Source: a phage. Taken from it: 64,000 bases of DNA. The notes beneath the pieces were generated by a model that did no database searches, had not been told where the DNA came from, and was given only the letters and a program-made list of their open reading frames with translations. The stretch is taken from sequence record PZ445524.1; one strand, written 5' to 3'. Below, in pieces: positions 917 to 60,822 of the stretch; within the stretch, counting starts at the first letter, position 1, and every line of letters starts with the position of its first letter. A program made the translations under genes and the position numbers.

Positions 917-2599
917 TTAAACCATTACAGTAAATCGACCAACTTTCTTCATTTGAAGATGCTGACCATATTCTTGCGGGTCATGGTCTTTATGCGAAAT
1001 TATAAAAACATTAGTGTTTTTCATTGAATTTATAATATTAGCTACACCTTTAATACCTTCGGCATCAAATGACCCATCAAACACTTCATCGAGTATTAAT
1101 GTACTAATACTAACACCAGATACAGTAGAAGCAATATCACGCCAAGTAAATAAAAGAGCAATATCAATTCTTGCTTTTTCACCTTCACTAAATGAAGCAT
1201 AACTAAAATCTTCGCGACCACGGGATTTAATTGTCTCATTAAATTCTTCATCTAATGTAAACACATAATCCGCTTCCATTATTTTAAGATAATGGTTAAT
1301 CTGCTTATTAAATAATGGAATGTACTTTTTAATAATAGCACCTTTAATACCAGAATCTTTGAGCATATCAGTCAAAATTCCTCGGTGGTATTTTTCCATT
1401 ACTAAATTAGTTTTTGTCTTAACAATTTTATCAAGTTCTTCTTGAAGCAGTGCTATTTCATCAGCATGGTCAATAAACTCAGAAGATGCTTTTTCTATAG
1501 CCGCTTTAACCTTTTTAGCTTTATCTACTGCTGCGATCAGAGATTGCTTTTTATTGCGAATATCATTTGCCAACGACTGCTGGGTTTTAATATTATCTCG
1601 GTATTCATCAACAAGAACTTTTAAATTATCACGATGTGTTGAAAGCTGTTCAAACGAATGCGTACATTCAGAAACTTTATCTTTAATTTTAGAAACAACT
1701 TTATCACCGGAACTCAATTGCGACAAACAGGTTGGACATAATCCACCTTCGTGATACATATTAATGACTTTATTATATGAGTCAATTTTTGATTTAATTA
1801 AAACTGCTTCTTGACCGATTTTATTAAATGCATCAGTCGGGTCTTCATCTAAAACAATATTAACTAATCTTTCATTAGCTTCTTCTATTTCCGATTTTAG
1901 CGTTCTAGCTTCTTTTGCCAAATCATCATACATATTTTGCAGACGAGTAAGGTTGTCACCCGTTAATTTTTTCTGGCGTTCAACGTTATCATTATATATT
2001 TTAATTTGTTGGATAATACTATCTTTTTTAACATCAAGCACTTGGTTTTGTGAATTTAATTCGCGTATTAGTGCTTTATTAAGCTTATCCATTTCAGCTA
2101 ATGTTCCTACCTCGAGCAGGTCTTCCACAAGCTTTCTTCGCGCAGGGGTCGACAAACCCATGAAAGGGGTATACCCTGCTGTACCAAGGACAACAATCTG
2201 CTTGAAACTGGCATATGACATTCCGATAAGCTGTTCAAATTCTGCTTGGAAATCTTTACTGCTGGCAGATTCATTAAGACGTGTACCGTTAACGGTGATT
2301 TCGAAAACGTTTGGTTTTTGTCCTCTTTTGATATAATACTTTTTCTCATCATATTCCATCCACAGTTCAACTAAAAGTTCTTTCTTATTTGTGCTGTTTA
2401 TTAATTGACCTTTCTTTACATCGCGAAATGGCTTGCCAAAAAGCCCAAATGTGATGGCTTCTAGCATAGTAGACTTACCACCGCCATTTCGTCCAGTAAT
2501 AAGAGTTTTTTGAACCTTATCTAATTGAATGTCAACTCCATTTTGACCAACTGACATTATATTTTTATATTTTACTCTATTAAGTTTAAAATTCTTCAC
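917..2599 (-). CDS. 46: gp46 recombination nuclease subunit (Rad50/SbcC-like ATPase)
   Basis: 560 aa; Walker A GRNGGGKST; long coiled-coil middle; C-terminal signature/Walker B region; matches T4 gp46 length. Confidence 0.9.
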   Translation of the reverse strand: MKNFKLNRVKYKNIMSVGQNGVDIQLDKVQKTLITGRNGGGKSTMLEAITFGLFGKPFRDVKKGQLINSTNKKELLVELWMEYDEKKYYIKRGQKPNVFEITVNGTRLNESASSKDFQAEFEQLIGMSYASFKQIVVLGTAGYTPFMGLSTPARRKLVEDLLEVGTLAEMDKLNKALIRELNSQNQVLDVKKDSIIQQIKIYNDNVERQKKLTGDNLTRLQNMYDDLAKEARTLKSEIEEANERLVNIVLDEDPTDAFNKIGQEAVLIKSKIDSYNKVINMYHEGGLCPTCLSQLSSGDKVVSKIKDKVSECTHSFEQLSTHRDNLKVLVDEYRDNIKTQQSLANDIRNKKQSLIAAVDKAKKVKAAIEKASSEFIDHADEIALLQEELDKIVKTKTNLVMEKYHRGILTDMLKDSGIKGAIIKKYIPLFNKQINHYLKIMEADYVFTLDEEFNETIKSRGREDFSYASFSEGEKARIDIALLFTWRDIASTVSGVSISTLILDEVFDGSFDAEGIKGVANIINSMKNTNVFIISHKDHDPQEYGQHLQMKKVGRFTVMV

Positions 2600-2811
2600 A
2601 AAAGATTCCTTTTAATGTATCTTTTAGACCATTCTATCATATCATCATAATCTAAAAAGTATTCATCAAATTCAGCCATGCAAACAACACCTTGTGCTGT
2701 TTTTGATGTAATATAAATTATTCCAACATATCTAGAATCTTCTTCGATATAATCAATATTTGCTATGAATTCATCATTAATGTCAAATGTCGAAAACTTC
2801 ACAGTATGCAT
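2596..2811 (-). CDS. hypothetical protein (46.1 position); start taken at internal Met
   Basis: ORF 2596-2859 trimmed to ATG at 2809-2811 to avoid a 77-nt overlap with the upstream gene. Confidence 0.4.
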   Translation of the reverse strand: MHTVKFSTFDINDEFIANIDYIEEDSRYVGIIYITSKTAQGVVCMAEFDEYFLDYDDMIEWSKRYIKRNLL

Positions 2812-3046
2812 CCTTAATACAAGATACAGCCATATCTTGTAGTGATTTAGGTGTGTCATTATCTAAAATGTTGAAGTTAAAAGATACAGCCCAGTCAGTG
2901 CAGACTGTAACCTTTTTAATACAATTATCTTCAACTTCTAGCGGTTCAAACCAGTATTCAATAATTTCTTTATGCCCAATATCATCTTTTACTTCGCATT
3001 CAAAATGCTGACTCATCATAACATTTTTAAATTCATCAAAAGTCAT
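2783..3046 (-). CDS. hypothetical protein (46.2 position)
   Basis: 87 aa ORF; stop overlaps gp47 start. Confidence 0.5.
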   Translation of the reverse strand: MTFDEFKNVMMSQHFECEVKDDIGHKEIIEYWFEPLEVEDNCIKKVTVCTDWAVSFNFNILDNDTPKSLQDMAVSCIKDAYCEVFDI

Positions 3047-4062
3047 TGTGTTGCCTCTACATATAGCTGATTTGCATATTGAATAAGTGCTTCACGGTCA
3101 GAATCAGTGATGTCTGGAATTGCATTAATATACTCTTCCATTAATGTCTGAAGCGATTGAACTTCAACTTCTTCACTGTCATCTGACTCGACAGAGTTAT
3201 CAATCTTTGACACAACTCGTAACGAATGCACAACTTTTTCTAGTTCAGATTCGAACTTCGTCAGATTTTTGTCTACTTCAGTTACTATAACACGTACTGA
3301 TAGATTTGTAAAATCTTTATAGTCAATTTTTCCTTTAAATGGATAATGAATTCTACGATGCCAGGTAGTATTGTTTGGAATAAATTCCATTCGTTCTGTT
3401 TCTGTATCAAACATCCAGAACCCACGAGGGTCATTCTCGTCACCTGCAGTTAGTGTCCATGGTGTCCCAATATATCTGACGTTTGCAGCCTCAGAAATAG
3501 TATGGAAGTGACCAGACCACACTTCTTTATAAGTCTTAAGGAAATCAGGTTCAAGACCGTGAGATTTCATTCCTTTATAAAAATAAAATCCATTCAGTTC
3601 CCAGTGACCAACACAAAAAGAAGCAGATGAAGTTTTGATGTGCTCAAGAATTTCACCAGTATTTTCTTCGCACATCCAAGGAATCAAATCAATCAAACAT
3701 CCGTCAAAATCTACTGTAGTAGGCTTATCATATACTTTAACATTAGGATATTTAGCCAAAAGCTCAGTAGAAGCATTTGGAGTTAAAGTATTTTTAAAGT
3801 GCATATCATGGTTTCCTACAACAGTATGCAGGGTAATACCAGCATCATCAAGCATTTGAACTATTTCACGAGCAAACTCCATAGTTTTATGCGTGATTGC
3901 TTTTCGCACATCAAAAATATCGCCGTATTGAATCCAGGTAGTAATTCCATTTTTCTTAGAATATTCTATCGCTTGCTTAATTCCATCCAACTGAATGGAT
4001 TGAACCCACTCATCATCGGCTTTAACGCCTAAATGCCAATCACCTAAATTTAAAATTTTCAT
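3043..4062 (-). CDS. 47: gp47 recombination nuclease subunit (Mre11/SbcD-like phosphoesterase)
   Basis: 339 aa; calcineurin-like motifs GDWH, GDIFD, GNHD; matches T4 gp47 length. Confidence 0.9.
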   Translation of the reverse strand: MKILNLGDWHLGVKADDEWVQSIQLDGIKQAIEYSKKNGITTWIQYGDIFDVRKAITHKTMEFAREIVQMLDDAGITLHTVVGNHDMHFKNTLTPNASTELLAKYPNVKVYDKPTTVDFDGCLIDLIPWMCEENTGEILEHIKTSSASFCVGHWELNGFYFYKGMKSHGLEPDFLKTYKEVWSGHFHTISEAANVRYIGTPWTLTAGDENDPRGFWMFDTETERMEFIPNNTTWHRRIHYPFKGKIDYKDFTNLSVRVIVTEVDKNLTKFESELEKVVHSLRVVSKIDNSVESDDSEEVEVQSLQTLMEEYINAIPDITDSDREALIQYANQLYVEATQ

Positions 4063-27420: not shown

Positions 27421-27882
27421 TCATTGAGTTTTAATTACTGCTTTAGAAGCCTTTCCTGGTAAACGACGACTGTTGATAATTGCCATCCTACATTGAAGTG
27501 ACGGGTCTTTGAACTTCGCGTTAGGTTTACAAACTGTAAATCCAAGCCAAAGATTTCCATCTGTGATTTCTAAACGTCCAGGACGATATTCAACCCCATC
27601 AATAAAATCCTCGTCAATGTCAGGACGCGGAGGCATACTCAGGAATTCATTAACTTCTAAAACATGGTCTTTTATTTTATGGAATAATTCAAAAACGTAT
27701 GTCTCATCAATCTCCCGTTGAATTGCGCGATCAAGAAGATGCTGAGAATATTTTAGATGAAACGATGAGACTCCTGCTGCTTTTGATGCCTCACGAATCT
27801 CATTGTTAATTTGACGAAACTCCGACTCAAAGTGACGACGAAGCTTATTTCGACGGATAAAAACTTCTGTATTGATAGTCAT
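27421..27882 (-). CDS. regB: endoribonuclease RegB
   Basis: 153 aa; T4 length and position; early promoter directly upstream. Confidence 0.8.
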   Translation of the reverse strand: MTINTEVFIRRNKLRRHFESEFRQINNEIREASKAAGVSSFHLKYSQHLLDRAIQREIDETYVFELFHKIKDHVLEVNEFLSMPPRPDIDEDFIDGVEYRPGRLEITDGNLWLGFTVCKPNAKFKDPSLQCRMAIINSRRLPGKASKAVIKTQ

Positions 27883-28486: not shown

Positions 28487-28700
28487 ATTTGACTTCCTCA
28501 CCAGTGCATAAATCATATTCAACTAAACGAATAGGTTCATGAATGCCATATCCCTGAACAGAAATTTCTGTCGTAGGATAAATTCCATCAATATCGCCCA
28601 TATTCCACGCTTCATTAAATTGCTGTTCGCCTGAATTACTAAACCACTCGGCGAAAGCATTTAGAACATCTTTAGAACCTTCAATAATTATCTTTGCCAT
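28479..28700 (-). CDS. hypothetical protein (vs.5 position)
   Basis: 73 aa ORF. Confidence 0.45.
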   Translation of the reverse strand: MAKIIIEGSKDVLNAFAEWFSNSGEQQFNEAWNMGDIDGIYPTTEISVQGYGIHEPIRLVEYDLCTGEEVKYD

Positions 28701-29062
28701 TACAAACTCTCGGTGAAGGTACGAGCGATAACGTCGCGCTGCTGTTCCGGAGTCAGAGAGTTAAAGCGAACTGCATAACCGGATACACGGATGGTCAGCT
28801 GCGGATATTTTTCCGGATGCTTAACTGCATCTTCCAGAGTTTCACGACGCAGAACGTTAACGTTCAGGTGCTGACCACCTTCAATTTTAACTGTAGGCTG
28901 TGACTCAATTTCAATTTCACGGGCATGCAAACCATAGAAAATTTCTGGGTCTACAAAAGAGTCCTCTTTAAAGGTTTTAGAGACAATAATTCGTGCTTGA
29001 ATACCATCTTCAAAATAAATAGTACCTTTATGTGTGCCTTCAAGAATTTGATATGCTTTCAT
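28700..29062 (-). CDS. autonomous glycyl radical cofactor (GrcA/YfiD-like)
   Basis: 120 aa; C-terminal [25 protein letters not shown] glycyl-radical signature. Confidence 0.8.
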
Positions 29063-29069
29063 ATAAACC

Positions 29070-29396
29070 TCAATTAGAAAATAAATTTATCCAAGATTGT
29101 TCTTTAATTAAAAATGGCTCAGAATCATATGCCATTAAACTTTGCGTAATTAGTCCTTTAAAAGGCCCATCAATAAATTCCATGGTAAAATATGGAATTT
29201 TATTCATTAGCCGTGCATTAGGAGCAGTACACAAAACTCTGCATCCTTTGAATACGCCTTTTTGCAATTTGTATTGCTTAGGATAAAATTCGCTTAAAAT
29301 GTTATTTTTTGCCAAAATTTCAAAATGATTCACCAATTTATTTTTAATAGTTTTTGGCGAAAAATAAAGATATTCGAAAAGCTGAGTGTCTGTCAT
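29070..29396 (-). CDS. hypothetical protein (vs.7 position)
   Basis: ORF trimmed to internal Met; overlaps the next gene in ATGA fashion. Confidence 0.4.
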
Positions 29397-29935
29397 CATT
29401 GCATTCCGATTACGAAAAACTGTGGACGAGTAATACCACCAATACAACATTTAATATTACAGCAGCAGTGTACAGTGTCAATATGGACACTATAAATTTT
29501 ATCCATATCAGGAGATTTAACAGGCTCATCAATTATATACAAAATTCGCGAAAGCTTTAAACCTCTGAACTTGCTTCCTTTATTACCGATAAAACTGCGC
29601 ACAGAATCAGTAAATAAACGAAAACGTATATCATCATTAGAATAACGCGAAAATTCCTTTTTGATGCTATTTGCAGAAATTTTAGCGTAAGCTGAAGTAT
29701 TAGAAAGAACAATAACTGTTCCGCCATCATACAACCAATTAGCGGCAAAATTAGTTACTGCAGTTGATTTACCGGATTGACGTCCACCATCTAGTCGAAG
29801 TGTGCAATACTGCTTAAGTAAGTCTTCAAATGGTGGGATATAATCGTTTTTACAAATTTCTTCTACTCTAGCATCAGAATGGTGTGTAAAAGCATTCATC
29901 AGGGATAGATAAGGACCAGTTAAAAATGTTCTCAT
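29396..29935 (-). CDS. P-loop NTPase/kinase-like protein (where denV would be)
   Basis: Walker A GGRQSGKST; Cys cluster HCCCNIKCC near C-terminus; start chosen at ATG 29933-29935. Confidence 0.5.
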   Translation of the reverse strand: MRTFLTGPYLSLMNAFTHHSDARVEEICKNDYIPPFEDLLKQYCTLRLDGGRQSGKSTAVTNFAANWLYDGGTVIVLSNTSAYAKISANSIKKEFSRYSNDDIRFRLFTDSVRSFIGNKGSKFRGLKLSRILYIIDEPVKSPDMDKIYSVHIDTVHCCCNIKCCIGGITRPQFFVIGMQ

Positions 29936-30112
29936 TTTATTCTCTCTAAATTTGGGCCATTCCATGGCGCATGAATTGTCCATTTCTGTATTTACCCATT
30001 ACCGCACTTGGGCTTGACCTTATTACAGGTTGGCGGGAATCCCTCACAAAATCATGAGGTCCAGGTTGTTCCCATGTTATTTAAATGTAAATAGGTCTGA
30101 GTATTCGCTTTA

Positions 30113-30691
30113 TTAGGAATTACGGGCTGCATTAGCAACGGCATACGCGTACTGAATATTAGCGTCTTTAAACTTACCTTTAGAGGTATCTATTTCTGCC
30201 TTAAAGCCGCCTTTAGTCATAACATCGGCAAATTCTTTACGGAAAGCCATTGCATCAAGACCTTTCCATGATGATTTATGCTTAGCAAATTCAAGACCTG
30301 CGAAGTTAACAGCCTTAGCTAATTTATTATCAATAACCCATTTACCGGCTTTAGGCACAAACTTCGGGCCTTTCTGTTTAGAGAACAGTTTTAAATTCCA
30401 GCGGCGAAGGTCTGCATCAGCTTTAACAAATTCTGAGTCTAAGTTACTAGCAACAACATCTTCAATATGAGCAAATTTAAGTCCGTCAACTTCAATATTT
30501 AAATCGGTACGCCAGCGAAGTCCTTCCCATGCGAAGGCTTTAAAGTCGGAAGCCTTTGTAGCTAAGTACCGTTCAATAGGAGCTGTTTTAGGGTCAAAGC
30601 CGTTTCCCGATCGGTAGGTCCACTCATCTTTGTTAATGCCTTTGGCCTTTACTACAGAAGCTTCGGCAATAAATTCTTGATATGTTTTCAT
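30113..30691 (-). CDS. ipIII: internal protein III-like (capsid-targeted)
   Basis: 192 aa; N-terminal capsid targeting sequence MKTYQEFIAEA; size matches T4 IPIII. Confidence 0.75.
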   Translation of the reverse strand: MKTYQEFIAEASVVKAKGINKDEWTYRSGNGFDPKTAPIERYLATKASDFKAFAWEGLRWRTDLNIEVDGLKFAHIEDVVASNLDSEFVKADADLRRWNLKLFSKQKGPKFVPKAGKWVIDNKLAKAVNFAGLEFAKHKSSWKGLDAMAFRKEFADVMTKGGFKAEIDTSKGKFKDANIQYAYAVANAARNS

Positions 30692-30707
30692 GCGTTTCCT
30701 TTAATTT

Positions 30708-31025
30708 TTATTCTTTAGGGAAGTTTTTAGAATATGCATCATAAAGCTTATTTCCAATACGGCGGAAAACTCTAGCCGCAAAACGATTTTCTGGGTTTTT
30801 AATCATGATTTGCATCATATAAGTACCCGCGTCAGAAAGAGCTTCTTCATAGTACCCGTTAATTTCTTTAAGAGTCCTACGTTTACCACCAGGACCATCA
30901 ACAGTGATTTTCCATTTACCTGTAGAAGTGCGACTTGGCGGCTCAACTTGTTCAATCCAAATATAACCGCCTTCTACACGTTGTCCTGCAGCAGATTCTG
31001 CAATAAATTCTTGATATGTTTTCAT
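30708..31025 (-). CDS. ipII: internal protein II-like (capsid-targeted)
   Basis: 105 aa; N-terminal MKTYQEFIAES. Confidence 0.7.
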   Translation of the reverse strand: MKTYQEFIAESAAGQRVEGGYIWIEQVEPPSRTSTGKWKITVDGPGGKRRTLKEINGYYEEALSDAGTYMMQIMIKNPENRFAARVFRRIGNKLYDAYSKNFPKE

Positions 31026-31070
31026 GTGTTTCCTTTAAATATTTTAATTAGTAATTTGTCTCTTCAAGCA

Positions 31071-31101
31071 ACTGTGAATATACTATCACAATTCTAGGAG
31101 A
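31071..31101 (-). promoter_or_regulatory. T4-type early promoter
   Basis: minus GTTTAC ... TGATAGTATAT. Confidence 0.45.
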
Positions 31102-31113
31102 AAGTAAACAACT

Positions 31114-31644
<531 letters not shown>

Positions 31645-32100
31645 TTAAAAGAGGTTGTTCATTATTCGGTAAAGTGAAGGACCCATCACATATTGCCACT
31701 GAGTACGAGGAATAAGAGCAAAAGCGTCCATCTCTGGAATCATAACGCCATCTTTATTTTCAAAATAAGACTCGCAACGGCAATTTCTAAACATCTCATG
31801 CTCTACTGGAATCGTATAATAAAATAACTGTAGGTCTTTATTACTAGAATATTTAAATACACCTAGGTCTTCTAGAAGGTCTGGATTATAATTGCTAAAA
31901 CCAGTCTCTTCTAAGCATTCTCTTCGTGCTGCATCTAATGCGCTTAAATCAGAACATTCTACACGACCTTTTGGAATATCCCAACGATGTGCCATCATTC
32001 CAGGCTTACGAGAACCAGTAACCCGACCCATAAATAAATCTTTATCTTCTGTCATAAAGATAATACCAGCTGATAATGTTTTCATTTTAATTTCCTGCAA
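31645..32100 (-). CDS. nudE: Nudix hydrolase
   Basis: 151 aa; Nudix box AARRECLEETGF. Confidence 0.85.
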   Translation of the reverse strand: MQEIKMKTLSAGIIFMTEDKDLFMGRVTGSRKPGMMAHRWDIPKGRVECSDLSALDAARRECLEETGFSNYNPDLLEDLGVFKYSSNKDLQLFYYTIPVEHEMFRNCRCESYFENKDGVMIPEMDAFALIPRTQWQYVMGPSLYRIMNNLF

Positions 32101-35793: not shown

Positions 35794-35870
35794 TGGTCGA
35801 GGCAGAAGGATTCTAACCTTCAACCTACGGATTAGAAATCCGTTGCTCTATACAATTGAGCTATGCCCCG
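35794..35870 (-). tRNA. tRNA-Arg (anticodon UCU), CCA encoded
   Basis: Hand-folded cloverleaf: acceptor CGGGGCA/TGCCTCG, D-stem GCTC/GAGC, anticodon stem ACGGA/TCCGT with loop TTTCTAA, T-arm GAAGG/CCTTC. Confidence 0.75.
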
Positions 35871-35873
35871 TAA

Positions 35874-36539
35874 TTAAAATTTCATTTTTCGACCTTTAAA
35901 CCATCCTTCTGGAATTGGGTCAGTTTTCTTAATACGTTTAGAAACTTTTTCATCTAATGAATGAATCCACATCATACCAAATTGGGAATTCTTTTCGCCC
36001 TGTTGATGTTTATTTCTGGCGTGAGATTCTTTCATTTTATTAATAGTTTCAGGAGTATGATGCTTATTTAAAAATCTGCTATTATTTAAAAATTTTTCCC
36101 TGTATTCAGGAGTTGACCACAAGCGTTTAAATACATTTGAACCATGTTTACGATATTTTTCTTGAAGTAAAATATCATTTTTAAAACGTGACTTAAACGA
36201 TTTAGCTCCTTTTAAGCTAGCATCTTTCTTCTGGTTTAGCATCCCAGGAATATTTACATGATCCCATCCACCTTCACCACCAAGTTTTAAATTATACACA
36301 TCTGGTCTATTTAAAAACTCTTCTGTGACAATATTTTTCTCGGCTTCAAGCATAGATTCTTTATCATCAAAATACTCTAATATTTCTTTAGAAAAATTTT
36401 CTATACCATATTTATCTTGGGCTCTTTTTAATAATTTACCAGAACCCATATATCCATCATCTAAATTTTCGGTAGAATGCGCACCAATATAAATTTTATT
36501 ATTAATTTTATTTGTTATTTTATAAGTGTAATGGAACAT
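35874..36539 (-). CDS. segB: GIY-YIG homing endonuclease SegB
   Basis: 221 aa; GIY-YIG motifs KIYIGAHST and YMGSG; embedded in the tRNA cluster as in T4. Confidence 0.85.
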   Translation of the reverse strand: MFHYTYKITNKINNKIYIGAHSTENLDDGYMGSGKLLKRAQDKYGIENFSKEILEYFDDKESMLEAEKNIVTEEFLNRPDVYNLKLGGEGGWDHVNIPGMLNQKKDASLKGAKSFKSRFKNDILLQEKYRKHGSNVFKRLWSTPEYREKFLNNSRFLNKHHTPETINKMKESHARNKHQQGEKNSQFGMMWIHSLDEKVSKRIKKTDPIPEGWFKGRKMKF

Positions 36540-36580
36540 AAATATCTCCTATTTCTAAGAGTATTTATGTTCCCAAAATA

Positions 36581-36652
36581 TGGCCCTGGGTGGAATTGAA
36601 CCACCATCTGGCGATTATGAGTCGCTTGCTTGAACCTTCCAGCTACAGGGCC
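36581..36652 (-). tRNA. tRNA-Ile (anticodon CAU, presumably lysidine-modified), no encoded CCA
   Basis: Hand-folded: acceptor GGCCCTG/CAGGGCC, anticodon loop CTCATAA, T-arm GGTGG-TTCAATT-CCACC. Confidence 0.7.
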
Positions 36653-36653
36653 T

Positions 36654-36729
36654 TGGTGCTGATTGACGGAATCGAACCGCCGACCTTCTCATTACAAGTG
36701 AGTTGCTCTACCTACTGAGCTAAATCAGC
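36654..36729 (-). tRNA. tRNA-Thr (anticodon UGU), CCA encoded
   Basis: Hand-folded: acceptor GCTGATT/AATCAGC, D-arm GCTC/GAGC, anticodon loop CTTGTAA, T-loop TTCGATT. Confidence 0.8.
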
Positions 36730-36731
36730 AA

Positions 36732-36818
36732 CGGAGGCGATAGGATTTGAACCTATGAGTCGCCGGAGCGACTGCCGGTTTTCAAGACCGGTGCATTAAA
36801 CCACTCTGCCACGCCTCC
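36732..36818 (-). tRNA. tRNA-Ser (anticodon UGA), long variable arm, no encoded CCA
   Basis: Hand-folded: acceptor GGAGGCG/CGCCTCC, anticodon stem CCGGT/ACCGG with loop CTTGAAA, variable arm GTCGC-TCCG-GCGAC. Confidence 0.8.
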
Positions 36819-36820
36819 AG

Positions 36821-36894
36821 TCTCCGCGGCAGGATTTGAACCTGCGACATTCTGCTCCCAAAGCAGACGCTCTACCAAACTGAGCTACACGGAG
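36821..36894 (-). tRNA. tRNA-Pro (anticodon UGG), no encoded CCA
   Basis: Hand-folded: acceptor CTCCGTG/CGCGGAG, anticodon stem TCTGC/GCAGA with loop TTTGGGA, T-arm GCAGG-TTCAAAT-CCTGC. Confidence 0.8.
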
Positions 36895-36904
36895 TAAATT
36901 AAAT

Positions 36905-36978
<74 letters not shown>

Positions 36979-36983
36979 AAATT

Positions 36984-37070
36984 TGGTGCGAGAAGTGGGA
37001 CTCGAACCCACAAGGAAATCATTCCGCAGCATTTTAAGTGCTGTGCCTTTACCAATTTGACCATTCTCGC
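36984..37070 (-). tRNA. tRNA-Leu (anticodon UAA), long variable arm, CCA encoded
   Basis: Hand-folded: acceptor GCGAGAA/TTCTCGC, anticodon stem CAGCA/TGCTG with loop CTTAAAA, variable arm GGAA-TGAT-TTCC. Confidence 0.8.
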
Positions 37071-37071
37071 G

Positions 37072-37144
37072 CTGGGAATAAAGGACTCGAACCTTTGCAT
37101 CCTGGAATCAAAATCCAGTGCCTTACCAACTTGGCTAATTCCCA
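37072..37144 (-). tRNA. tRNA-Gln (anticodon UUG), no encoded CCA
   Basis: Hand-folded: acceptor TGGGAAT/ATTCCCA, anticodon stem CTGGA/TCCAG with loop TTTTGAT, T-loop TTCGAGT; 1 nt from tRNA-Leu. Confidence 0.75.

Positions 37145-58311: not shown

Positions 58312-60822
<2,511 letters not shown>

Follow-up and report, generated by a model that had tools for sequence, protein, structure and literature searches.

The nearest described kind of RNA to the element reported here is that of ROOL and GOLLD and of the two stable RNAs of bacteriophage T4, species 1 and 2 (rnaC and rnaD). ROOL and GOLLD are phage-encoded structured RNAs of unknown function that are found ‘often near tRNA islands’ (10.1101/2024.12.08.627333). 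The present element lies in the vs-ip-e region of a 64,000-nucleotide stretch of phage DNA (PZ445524.1; the window, in whose coordinates positions are given unless a record or locus is named), where all mapped genes are on the minus strand and follow the T4 order. It is a conserved structured RNA that occupies 118 of the 177 ‘noncoding’ bases between ipIII and vs.8 (29956–30073, minus strand). In common with ROOL and GOLLD, the element is phage-encoded, near tRNA genes, pseudoknotted and discovered through covariation, whereas it is five- to seven-fold smaller (∼110–145 nt, versus ∼580–800 nt) and has no sequence or structure match to the Rfam models; its T4-like form further differs from tRNA-island RNAs in lying 6 kb from the tRNA cluster. 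It also resembles pseudoknotted riboswitch aptamers, being compact and built on a junction of invariant nucleotides that is locked by a loop-to-tail pseudoknot, and some copies share with riboswitches a downstream terminator or a position adjoining a ribosome-binding site. Unlike riboswitches, the element has neither a consistent downstream gene family nor a match to the curated riboswitch models. It apparently represents an undescribed structured RNA family, present in T4 itself. We explain the locus as a whole, with a probability of about 0.6, as a T2-type arrangement that carries a predicted ATPase gene (vs.8) and a conserved structured RNA, which we propose to be an autonomous RNA gene.

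A conserved structured RNA between ipIII and vs.8

In a preliminary description of the DNA, the gap between the two genes was given as noncoding with short inverted repeats. The 177 bp are indeed free of conserved open reading frames (ORFs) and do contain such repeats, which are not due to chance but are the helices of the conserved RNA. The gap forms a GC-rich island (GC content of 0.47, versus 0.26–0.37 in the flanks), and a scan of 29300–31200 found no sigma70 promoter or intrinsic terminator inside it on either strand. The parts of the element and of the sequence leading to vs.8 are as follows.

30035–30073, minus strand: 5′ domain, made up of P1, P1a and the 5′ strand of P6
30069–30073 with 30035–30039, minus strand: P1, GGGAA paired with UUCCC
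30055–30059 with 30042–30046, minus strand: P1a, an inner hairpin, CCUCA paired with UGAGG
30062–30064 with 29986–29988, minus strand: P6 pseudoknot, CUG paired with CAG, joining the internal loop of P1 to the tail 3′ of P2
29993–30035, minus strand: core three-way junction of 43 nt, in which P2 closes P3, P4 and the junction GGUAA
29978–29983, minus strand: single-stranded motif AUGGAC (A-N-GGA-Y), kept in all T4-like forms
29956–29968, minus strand: 3′ hairpin GCCA-UGGAA-UGGC (GGA in its loop), specific to T4-like forms
29936–29983, minus strand: in-frame upstream extension of the vs.8 ORF (MDNSCAMEWPKFRENK), not coding, overlapping the 3′ part of the RNA element
29939–29947, minus strand: ribosome-binding site of vs.8 (AGAGAGAAU)

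Within the core, P2 is a helix of 3–4 bp (GCCA / U-G-GGU in the window, with a bulged base on its 3′ strand) that encloses the P3 hairpin (ACCUGUAAUAAGGU, ACCU-GUAAUA-AGGU), a C-R-A linker, the P4 hairpin (GC-N5–7-GC, with N6 in the window) and then the junction GGUAA. Pattern scans of viral and metagenome collections yielded 50 distinct core sequences, and P2 was tested on 43 sequences. A covariance model of the core scores the window copy (29993–30035, minus strand) at 65.8 bits (E = 3.5e-19), as compared with 8.9 bits for the next-best match in the 64-kb window; over ∼500 kb of other loci, the model separates true copies, none of which scores below 47.5 bits, from noise, which does not exceed 16.6 bits. 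The three inner pairs of P2 carry compensatory double changes in 7, 7 and 15 sequences, respectively, almost without mispairs. Overall, 88.6% of the P2 cells are paired with a score of 0.232 (0.067 for shuffles), a value reached by none of 500 shuffles, and sliding the partners by 1–3 columns lowers pairing from 89% to 26–47%. The long-range helix P6 was revealed by RNAalifold on 15 T4-like long forms, in which its two central pairs occur as CG (9), AU (3), GC (2) and UG (1), and as GC (8), CG (5) and AU (1). The complete T4-like structure of nine helices, pseudoknot included, is 93.1% paired with double changes at 7 pairs, and again 0 of 500 shuffles score as high. G-U wobble pairs are found only on the minus strand, i.e. 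that of the element. A further pairing proposed by RNAalifold, CCUUU/GUAAAGG, was rejected as it is incompatible with the P2 pairing, whose register shows covariation in all classes.

The same helices can be followed beyond the window. A P1 hairpin lies 5′ of the core in every class of the element, with compensatory variants GGGAA/UUCCC and GGGAG/CUCCC (locus L033), and AAAGG/CCUUU, AAAGCU/AGCUUU and AAAGA/UCUUU in the long form; P1a varies to CCUUA/UAAGG in locus L059. By eye, P6 can be drawn as CUG/CAG in Tequatrovirus, ACCG/CGGU in L096, AACCA/UGGUU in L085, GAGG/CCUC and GCCAG/CUGGU in two Vequintavirus types, CGGA/UCCG in the Pylas type and CGGU/GCCG in L074. In Pylas-type copies, an outer stem of 8–9 bp, seen in an alignment-free pairing search, closes the whole element. 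The T4-like additions, i.e. the A-N-GGA-Y motif and the GCCA-NGGAA-UGGC hairpin, precede the ribosome-binding site of the next gene; the hairpin has 98% of its cells paired in 15 T4-like sequences with one compensatory change (GGCA/UGCC in L013), and a UGGAC similar to the AUGGAC motif occurs downstream of the core in Pylas-type and Vequintavirus copies. In phage T2, a G-to-U change breaks one P3 pair (AAUAAUGUC), and the copy scores 56.9 bits versus 66–68 bits in other Tequatroviruses.

The true start of vs.8 is the ATG at 29935 (MRTFLTG...), where all 16 of the 16 aligned homologs begin (M[RKN]TFLT) and with which the length of the PHROG 1488 profile (177 aa) agrees. In the T4 record (NC_000866), the annotated vs.8 begins at a GTG located 120 nt further upstream and has 219 aa, such that its first 40 codons overlie the RNA element (T4 locus 2737–2856, equivalent to window 29936–30047); elsewhere the gene is annotated in 179-, 195- or 196-aa forms. 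The GTG start is unlikely because of the homolog starts, the 177-aa profile and frame-shifting indels, and comparison of the sequences indicates that these 40 codons are almost certainly not translated. That the stretch acts as coding sequence or as DNA, whether as a vs.8 N-terminus (219 aa from the GTG), a small upstream peptide or a DNA site, is hardly tenable. Such a reading can draw on the T4 annotation, on the frequent choice of the 195-aa form by gene callers (cluster P0001) and on the two frames that are open through the RNA core. However, indels directly 5′ of the ATG place the upstream stretch in differing frames or ahead of a stop in T4, PST, 235Ecol030PP and the window, close relatives in which the 120 nt 5′ of the ATG remain ∼95% identical despite the frame shifts, and the GTG frame of the window meets a stop after 33 codons. 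Furthermore, the AUGGAC frame lacks a conserved start codon (it has AAG and AGG in RB69, L013 and L060), the compensatory changes, G-U pairs included, track helices and not codons, and the same core occurs in ORF-free intergenic DNA of unrelated phages. An upstream ORF that would read AUGGAC as Met-Asp was likewise rejected, as neither its start codons nor its frame is conserved and the covariation of the hairpin contradicts a peptide.

Distribution and possible function of the element

A 140-nt query matches 1047 phage records. In T4 itself the element lies between denV and the real vs.8 start, and its central 45 nt recur at 75–93% identity in RB69, JD18, phiR1-RT, Proteus and Citrobacter phages and the Vequintavirinae, the last of which have no other DNA similarity to T4. 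Further copies are found in Mosig-, Jiaoda- and Tegunaviruses, in the N4-like Klebsiella phage Pylas (Schitoviridae) and in relatives of Pseudomonas phages (L085 and L096, whose nearest relatives are the Pseudomonas phages phiPMW/SYP and pf16). The core pattern has 0 matches in 185,579 bacterial and archaeal species genomes, and blastn at E ≤ 1 finds no match to the element in any of 5,426 complete E. coli genomes; a likeness to host tmRNA, the 530 loop of 16S rRNA, 5S rRNA or SRP RNA was dropped on the latter result. Against Rfam 15, cmscan of window 29800–30250 (E ≤ 10) returns two chance snoRNA matches only, both inside vs.8, and nine diverse loci (E ≤ 1) give no match at the element, where ARAGORN likewise finds no tRNA or tmRNA. 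Literature searches on the core sequence, on vs.8 and on structured or tRNA-cluster RNAs of T4-like phages returned no description of the element, which may be listed, uncharacterized, among the 10,006 viral candidates of PMC10690425. Thus T4, the best-studied phage, carries an unannotated pseudoknotted RNA of ∼120 nt with ∼20 invariant nucleotides between denV and vs.8, where it is hidden by a vs.8 ORF that has been drawn too long since the 1986 sequence, and the same core is present in >1000 phage records from at least four unrelated Enterobacteria-infecting lineages and from relatives of Pseudomonas phages.

The neighbourhood of the element differs from lineage to lineage. In T4-like phages the variable ip/denV block is always on one side of it and vs.8 on the other, except that in Jiaodavirus it precedes an ip gene; in JD18 the gene that follows is an ip gene and not vs.8. 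Outside the T4-like phages, no vs.3–vs.8 homolog is found near the element. Same-strand tRNA genes are 50–600 nt from it, or surround it within their cluster, in loci L096, L074, L044, L055, L061, L078, L085, L025, L005 and L035, and in Pylas it is in a 1-kb ORF-free stretch that follows six tRNA genes (L105, locus 2335–3342). An intrinsic terminator stands 3′ of the element in L085 and L096, and a consensus sigma70 promoter stands between it and the following ORF in Vequintavirus. T2 retains the element despite a frameshifted vs.8. The element is phage-specific, horizontally distributed, independent of neighbouring protein genes and on the transcribed strand, and it is not a regulator dedicated to vs.8. 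Its absence from the bacterial genomes searched, together with its usual placement in tRNA arrays outside the T4-like phages, points to a selectable and horizontally mobile RNA function in virulent phages. The element also provides a small, genetically tractable member of the little-understood tRNA-island-associated phage RNAs (ROOL, GOLLD and T4 species 1 and 2).

Several side observations concern these loci. In the 1-kb Pylas region, and also in L044, L051, L061, L071 and L078, the element is flanked by a repeated motif (AGUGCUCUUUCCGUUGUG), which suggests several small transcription units or further non-coding RNAs. A phiR1-RT-type metagenome contig (L070) holds two tandem cores (365–407 and 479–519; 57.8 and 47.5 bits) ∼110 nt apart, and a Vequintavirus-like contig (L035) has a group I intron (Rfam Intron_gpI, 81 bits) at 3115–3418, ∼3 kb downstream of the element. 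The window itself has eight tRNA genes (Arg, Met, Thr, Ser, Pro, Gly, Leu and Gln) at 35794–37144 on the minus strand, with a gap of ∼700 bp between tRNA-Arg and the remaining seven. In T4, species 1 and 2 are located in the corresponding gap; in the window this gap gives 0 matches to the covariance model of the RNA core.

We tentatively favour, at somewhat under even odds, a function as an autonomous stable RNA that is matured from polycistronic early or tRNA transcripts and acts in trans. The autonomy is argued from the same-strand tRNA genes, the terminators in L085 and L096, the Vequintavirus promoter, the unrelated downstream genes, the ip gene of JD18 and the retention in T2. The element would be transcribed inside polycistronic early or tRNA transcripts and trimmed out as tRNAs are, its pseudoknotted fold would keep it stable, and the invariant junction and the P3 loop (U-G-U-A/G-A) would be presented in trans to a partner that is conserved among gamma-proteobacterial hosts or phages and that plausibly belongs to the tRNA or translation machinery. 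Such a partner is attractive because the P3 loop, with its near-invariant U-G-U-R-A sequence, resembles the anticodon loop of GUN tRNAs (Tyr/His) as well as a T-loop. By this analogy the element could belong to a new class of small RNAs by which phages interact with the tRNA or translation system of the host, e.g. as a decoy for tRNA-recognizing factors, which we consider quite unlikely in this specific form. The P3 loop (C-U-G-U-A/G-A-N) would then imitate the U33-G34-U35 anticodon loop of GUN tRNAs (Tyr/His family) and titrate an anticodon nuclease, tRNA-guanine transglycosylase or another tRNA-recognizing defence or modification factor, and the element would have spread among unrelated virulent phages along with tRNA arrays; in that case T4 would have a third stable RNA, so far unrecognized, that serves in anti-defence or takeover. 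Several points weigh against an autonomous structured RNA. We infer the trans-acting role purely from context, and the T4-like element lacks its own promoter and extends from the stop codon of the preceding gene to 20–40 nt ahead of the next start codon, an arrangement that fits a cis leader or 3′-UTR element as well. The loci were retrieved by exact sequence patterns, which biases the known diversity to near-consensus cores; P3 and P4 are invariant, such that their support is from conservation and not from covariation; and the fold energy of the single sequence is unremarkable (z = −0.45 for the 186-nt gap). An alignment-free pseudoknot test on single sequences, for which the helices are too short, was not significant (median p = 0.58), and P6 therefore rests on the aligned T4-like set and on inspection by eye of the other classes.

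Two further explanations were weighed. A cis-regulatory RNA, i.e. a riboswitch or protein-binding leader in which the conserved junction would bind a metabolite or protein and folding of P2 and P6 would then control the terminator (L085 and L096) or ribosome access to vs.8, is unlikely though not far-fetched. The complexity of the element is aptamer-like, with covarying P2 and P6, a pseudoknot and a junction with ∼20 invariant nucleotides, as expected of a conserved structured aptamer; a start codon lies directly downstream in T4-like phages, intrinsic terminators follow in L085 and L096, and by eye the 5′ half of the L096 terminator (AAAGCCC) could alternatively pair with the 3′ strand of P2 and its linker (GGGGUUU). 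CsrA recognizes A-N-GGA-type motifs, and in the T4-like 3′ extension AUGGAC and the GCCA-NGGAA-UGGC hairpin with the motif in its loop are conserved near the ribosome-binding site, a putative likeness to CsrA-type sites. However, the downstream genes belong to no one pathway and are functionally unrelated (the vs.8 ATPase, the ip gene of JD18, tRNAs, a 629-aa structural-type protein and a terminase), a strong promoter intervenes before the following ORF in Vequintavirus, the Pylas copy sits within its 1-kb ORF-free stretch, T2 keeps the element ahead of a broken vs.8, and no known riboswitch model matches. Highly doubtful is a role in punctuation, as a processing or stability element for RNase E, RNase III, RNase P or 3′ exonucleases, whose fold would define and protect the ends of transcripts where highly expressed cassettes (ip genes, tRNAs) adjoin other genes, or as a put-like antitermination element by which RNA polymerase would be modified to read through terminators. 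It would account for the position of the element at cassette boundaries in all cases, for the start of the long form at the double stop UAAUAA of the upstream gene, for the adjoining tRNAs, themselves processing signals, and for the terminators just 3′ of it in L085 and L096. Yet the invariance of ∼20 nucleotides in loops and junction, from Straboviridae and Vequintavirinae to Schitoviridae and Pseudomonas phages, is more than a nuclease block or site would need, and no Rfam antitermination or leader family matches.

A T2-type vs-ip region without denV

The phage belongs to the genus Tequatrovirus (T4-like), with 95–97% identity to many phages over the region (megablast). The locus is ∼96% identical in DNA to that of T4, and the gene order regB-vs.3...vs.8-[ip cassette]-e-nudE is as in T4 and T2. 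The mapped features are as follows.

31645–32100, minus strand: nudE
31114–31608, minus strand: e
30708–31025, minus strand: gene of internal-protein (ip) type with the targeting leader MKTYQEFIAE; PHROG 3966, function unknown; no T4 counterpart
30113–30691, minus strand: ipIII, internal head protein, 99% identical to T4 IpIII over 192 aa; PHROG 5341
30074–30112, minus strand: spacer or recombination scar 3′ of the ipIII stop, of which 30074–30099 have no T4 counterpart
29936–30112, minus strand: ORF-free gap of 177 bp between ipIII and vs.8
29396–29935, minus strand: vs.8 (the Walker-A gene), 179-aa ASCE-type P-loop ATPase (predicted)
29070–29399, minus strand: vs.7, its start coupled to the vs.8 stop by an ATGA overlap; PHROG 2049
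28700–29062, minus strand: vs.6/GrcA; Pfam Gly_radical, 2.4e-18
27421–27882, minus strand: regB

The preliminary description had noted that denV, which encodes the pyrimidine-dimer glycosylase, is missing between the vs and ip genes, and had proposed a T2-like, ultraviolet (UV)-sensitive phage. Both the absence and the T2-like arrangement are borne out. With the DenV proteins of T4, RB69 and phiR1-RT, tblastn finds no similarity in the 64-kb window (best E = 0.5–0.9). By blastn, window 28700–30073 corresponds to T4 from vs.6 up to the base that follows the denV stop and 30100–30704 to T4 ipIII, whereas in place of the 882 bp between them in T4 (locus positions 2883–3764; denV, ipII and spacers) the window has 26 bp (30074–30099). 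T2 lacks denV, and its order is vs.7, a frameshifted vs.8, the RNA element, ipIV and e. The window is therefore a T2-type version of the T4 vs-ip region, in which exchange of the ip cassette removed denV and ipII. It differs from T2, which has ipIV alone and a frameshifted vs.8, in that ipIII abuts the RNA element and the other ip-type gene precedes e; it differs from T4, where denV and ipII lie between the RNA element and ipIII, in that ipIII directly adjoins the element. The denV gene is also missing at this position in T2, PST and ∼20 other Tequatroviruses, with ipIV in its place in PST and T2, and the exact ipIII junction of the window is common to ∼20 database phages. DenV is otherwise widespread, with matches in 1119 phage records.

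The exchange may have used the MKTYQEFIAE leader at one border and the conserved RNA element at the other. This leader is common to ip genes, and the 30708–31025 gene, which illustrates the shuffling of ip cassettes, matches T4 ipII and ipIII in the leader alone. At the other border, 30090–30115 (UAAUAAAGCGAAUACUCAGACCU), which includes the ipIII stop codon, resembles by eye the first 22 nt of the long-form element (JD18 UAAUAAAGCUAAACACGACCU). Because the ip leader is shared and the ipIII spacer resembles the 5′ end of the long form, the region looks like a cassette-exchange hotspot bordered by leader and element-like repeats. The closest complete genome sharing the ipIII junction is that of Shinka (MZ502379, 162 kb), in which no intact denV occurs and only the last 42 codons of the gene survive (record 60115–60240; 79% identity to T4 and 94% to RB69), placed between an ip-region ORF and a DUF2937 ORF beside e. 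This remnant records the loss of denV from a close relative. Given the T2-like arrangement without denV, and the lack of an intact denV in Shinka, UV sensitivity of the present phage is a plausible prediction of a known phenomenon and not a new one; UV sensitivity is a classical difference between T2 and T4. The loss of denV is ordinary in that it repeats this T2/T4 difference, and this part of the analysis is of little import, as is the re-identification of a known T4 gene in vs.8.

The P-loop protein vs.8

The Walker-A ORF (29396–29983, minus strand, in its full open extent) contains the GGRQSGKST and HCCCNIKCC sequences that were described for it. The gene had been considered a lineage-specific accessory gene, for which identity with the conserved T4 vs.8 would be fatal; it is this T4 gene, with 96.4% DNA identity over the 1382 bp that span vs.6–vs.8 (blastn), synteny with vs.7 and vs.6, and a match to PHROG 1488 (E = 2e-79; residues 3–179 against positions 2–177 of the 177 in the profile). 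The homologs fall into 27 clusters, all from T4-like phages. Walker A (LDGGRQSGK) and Walker B (LYIIDEP) are invariant in their alignment, which also shows R113, R124-G125 and a conserved C-terminus (FFVIGMQ in the window). HCCCNIKCC, which had been singled out as an unusual cluster, is not conserved; it lies in the most variable segment of the alignment and in the part of the AlphaFold model with the lowest confidence, and a metal-binding Cys cluster was rejected.

By sequence and predicted fold, vs.8 is a single-domain ASCE (RecA/terminase-like) ATPase. Its weak Pfam relatives, each below the curated cut-off, are AAA_14, AAA_30 and Terminase_6N, and the terminase profile phrog_2 matches at E = 2e-6. 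The listed fold matches of the AlphaFold model (pLDDT 82) are all to generic ASCE ATPase cores (helicase, terminase, RecA, KaiC and F1), with TM scores of 0.4–0.5 and Foldseek probabilities of 0.9–1.0. In agreement with these relatives (the ATPase domain of the terminase large subunit, the SF1/SF2 helicase core and RecA/KaiC), vs.8 has Walker A of the form GxxxxGK[ST], Walker B of the form hhhhDE, a conserved Arg and an alpha/beta core. It differs from them in being one 179-aa domain without a nuclease, second helicase or oligomerization domain, and its family, unlike the broad ASCE ATPase families, is limited to T4-like phages. The earlier suggestion of a nucleotide or polynucleotide kinase was abandoned in view of the invariant hhhhDE Walker B and the ASCE-only relatives: no kinase family in Pfam, NCBIfam or PHROGs matches vs.8, and the best 50 of the 1312 Foldseek matches in the PDB (E ≤ 10) are all ASCE ATPases, with no kinase among them. 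In T2 (NC_054931, 1172–1860), a 1-nt deletion shifts the frame of vs.8, which is annotated there as a 110-aa fragment; the gene is therefore dispensable, at least in the T2 strain. In the window, vs.7 and vs.8 are packed tightly and co-oriented with vs.6, a GrcA-type autonomous glycyl-radical cofactor.

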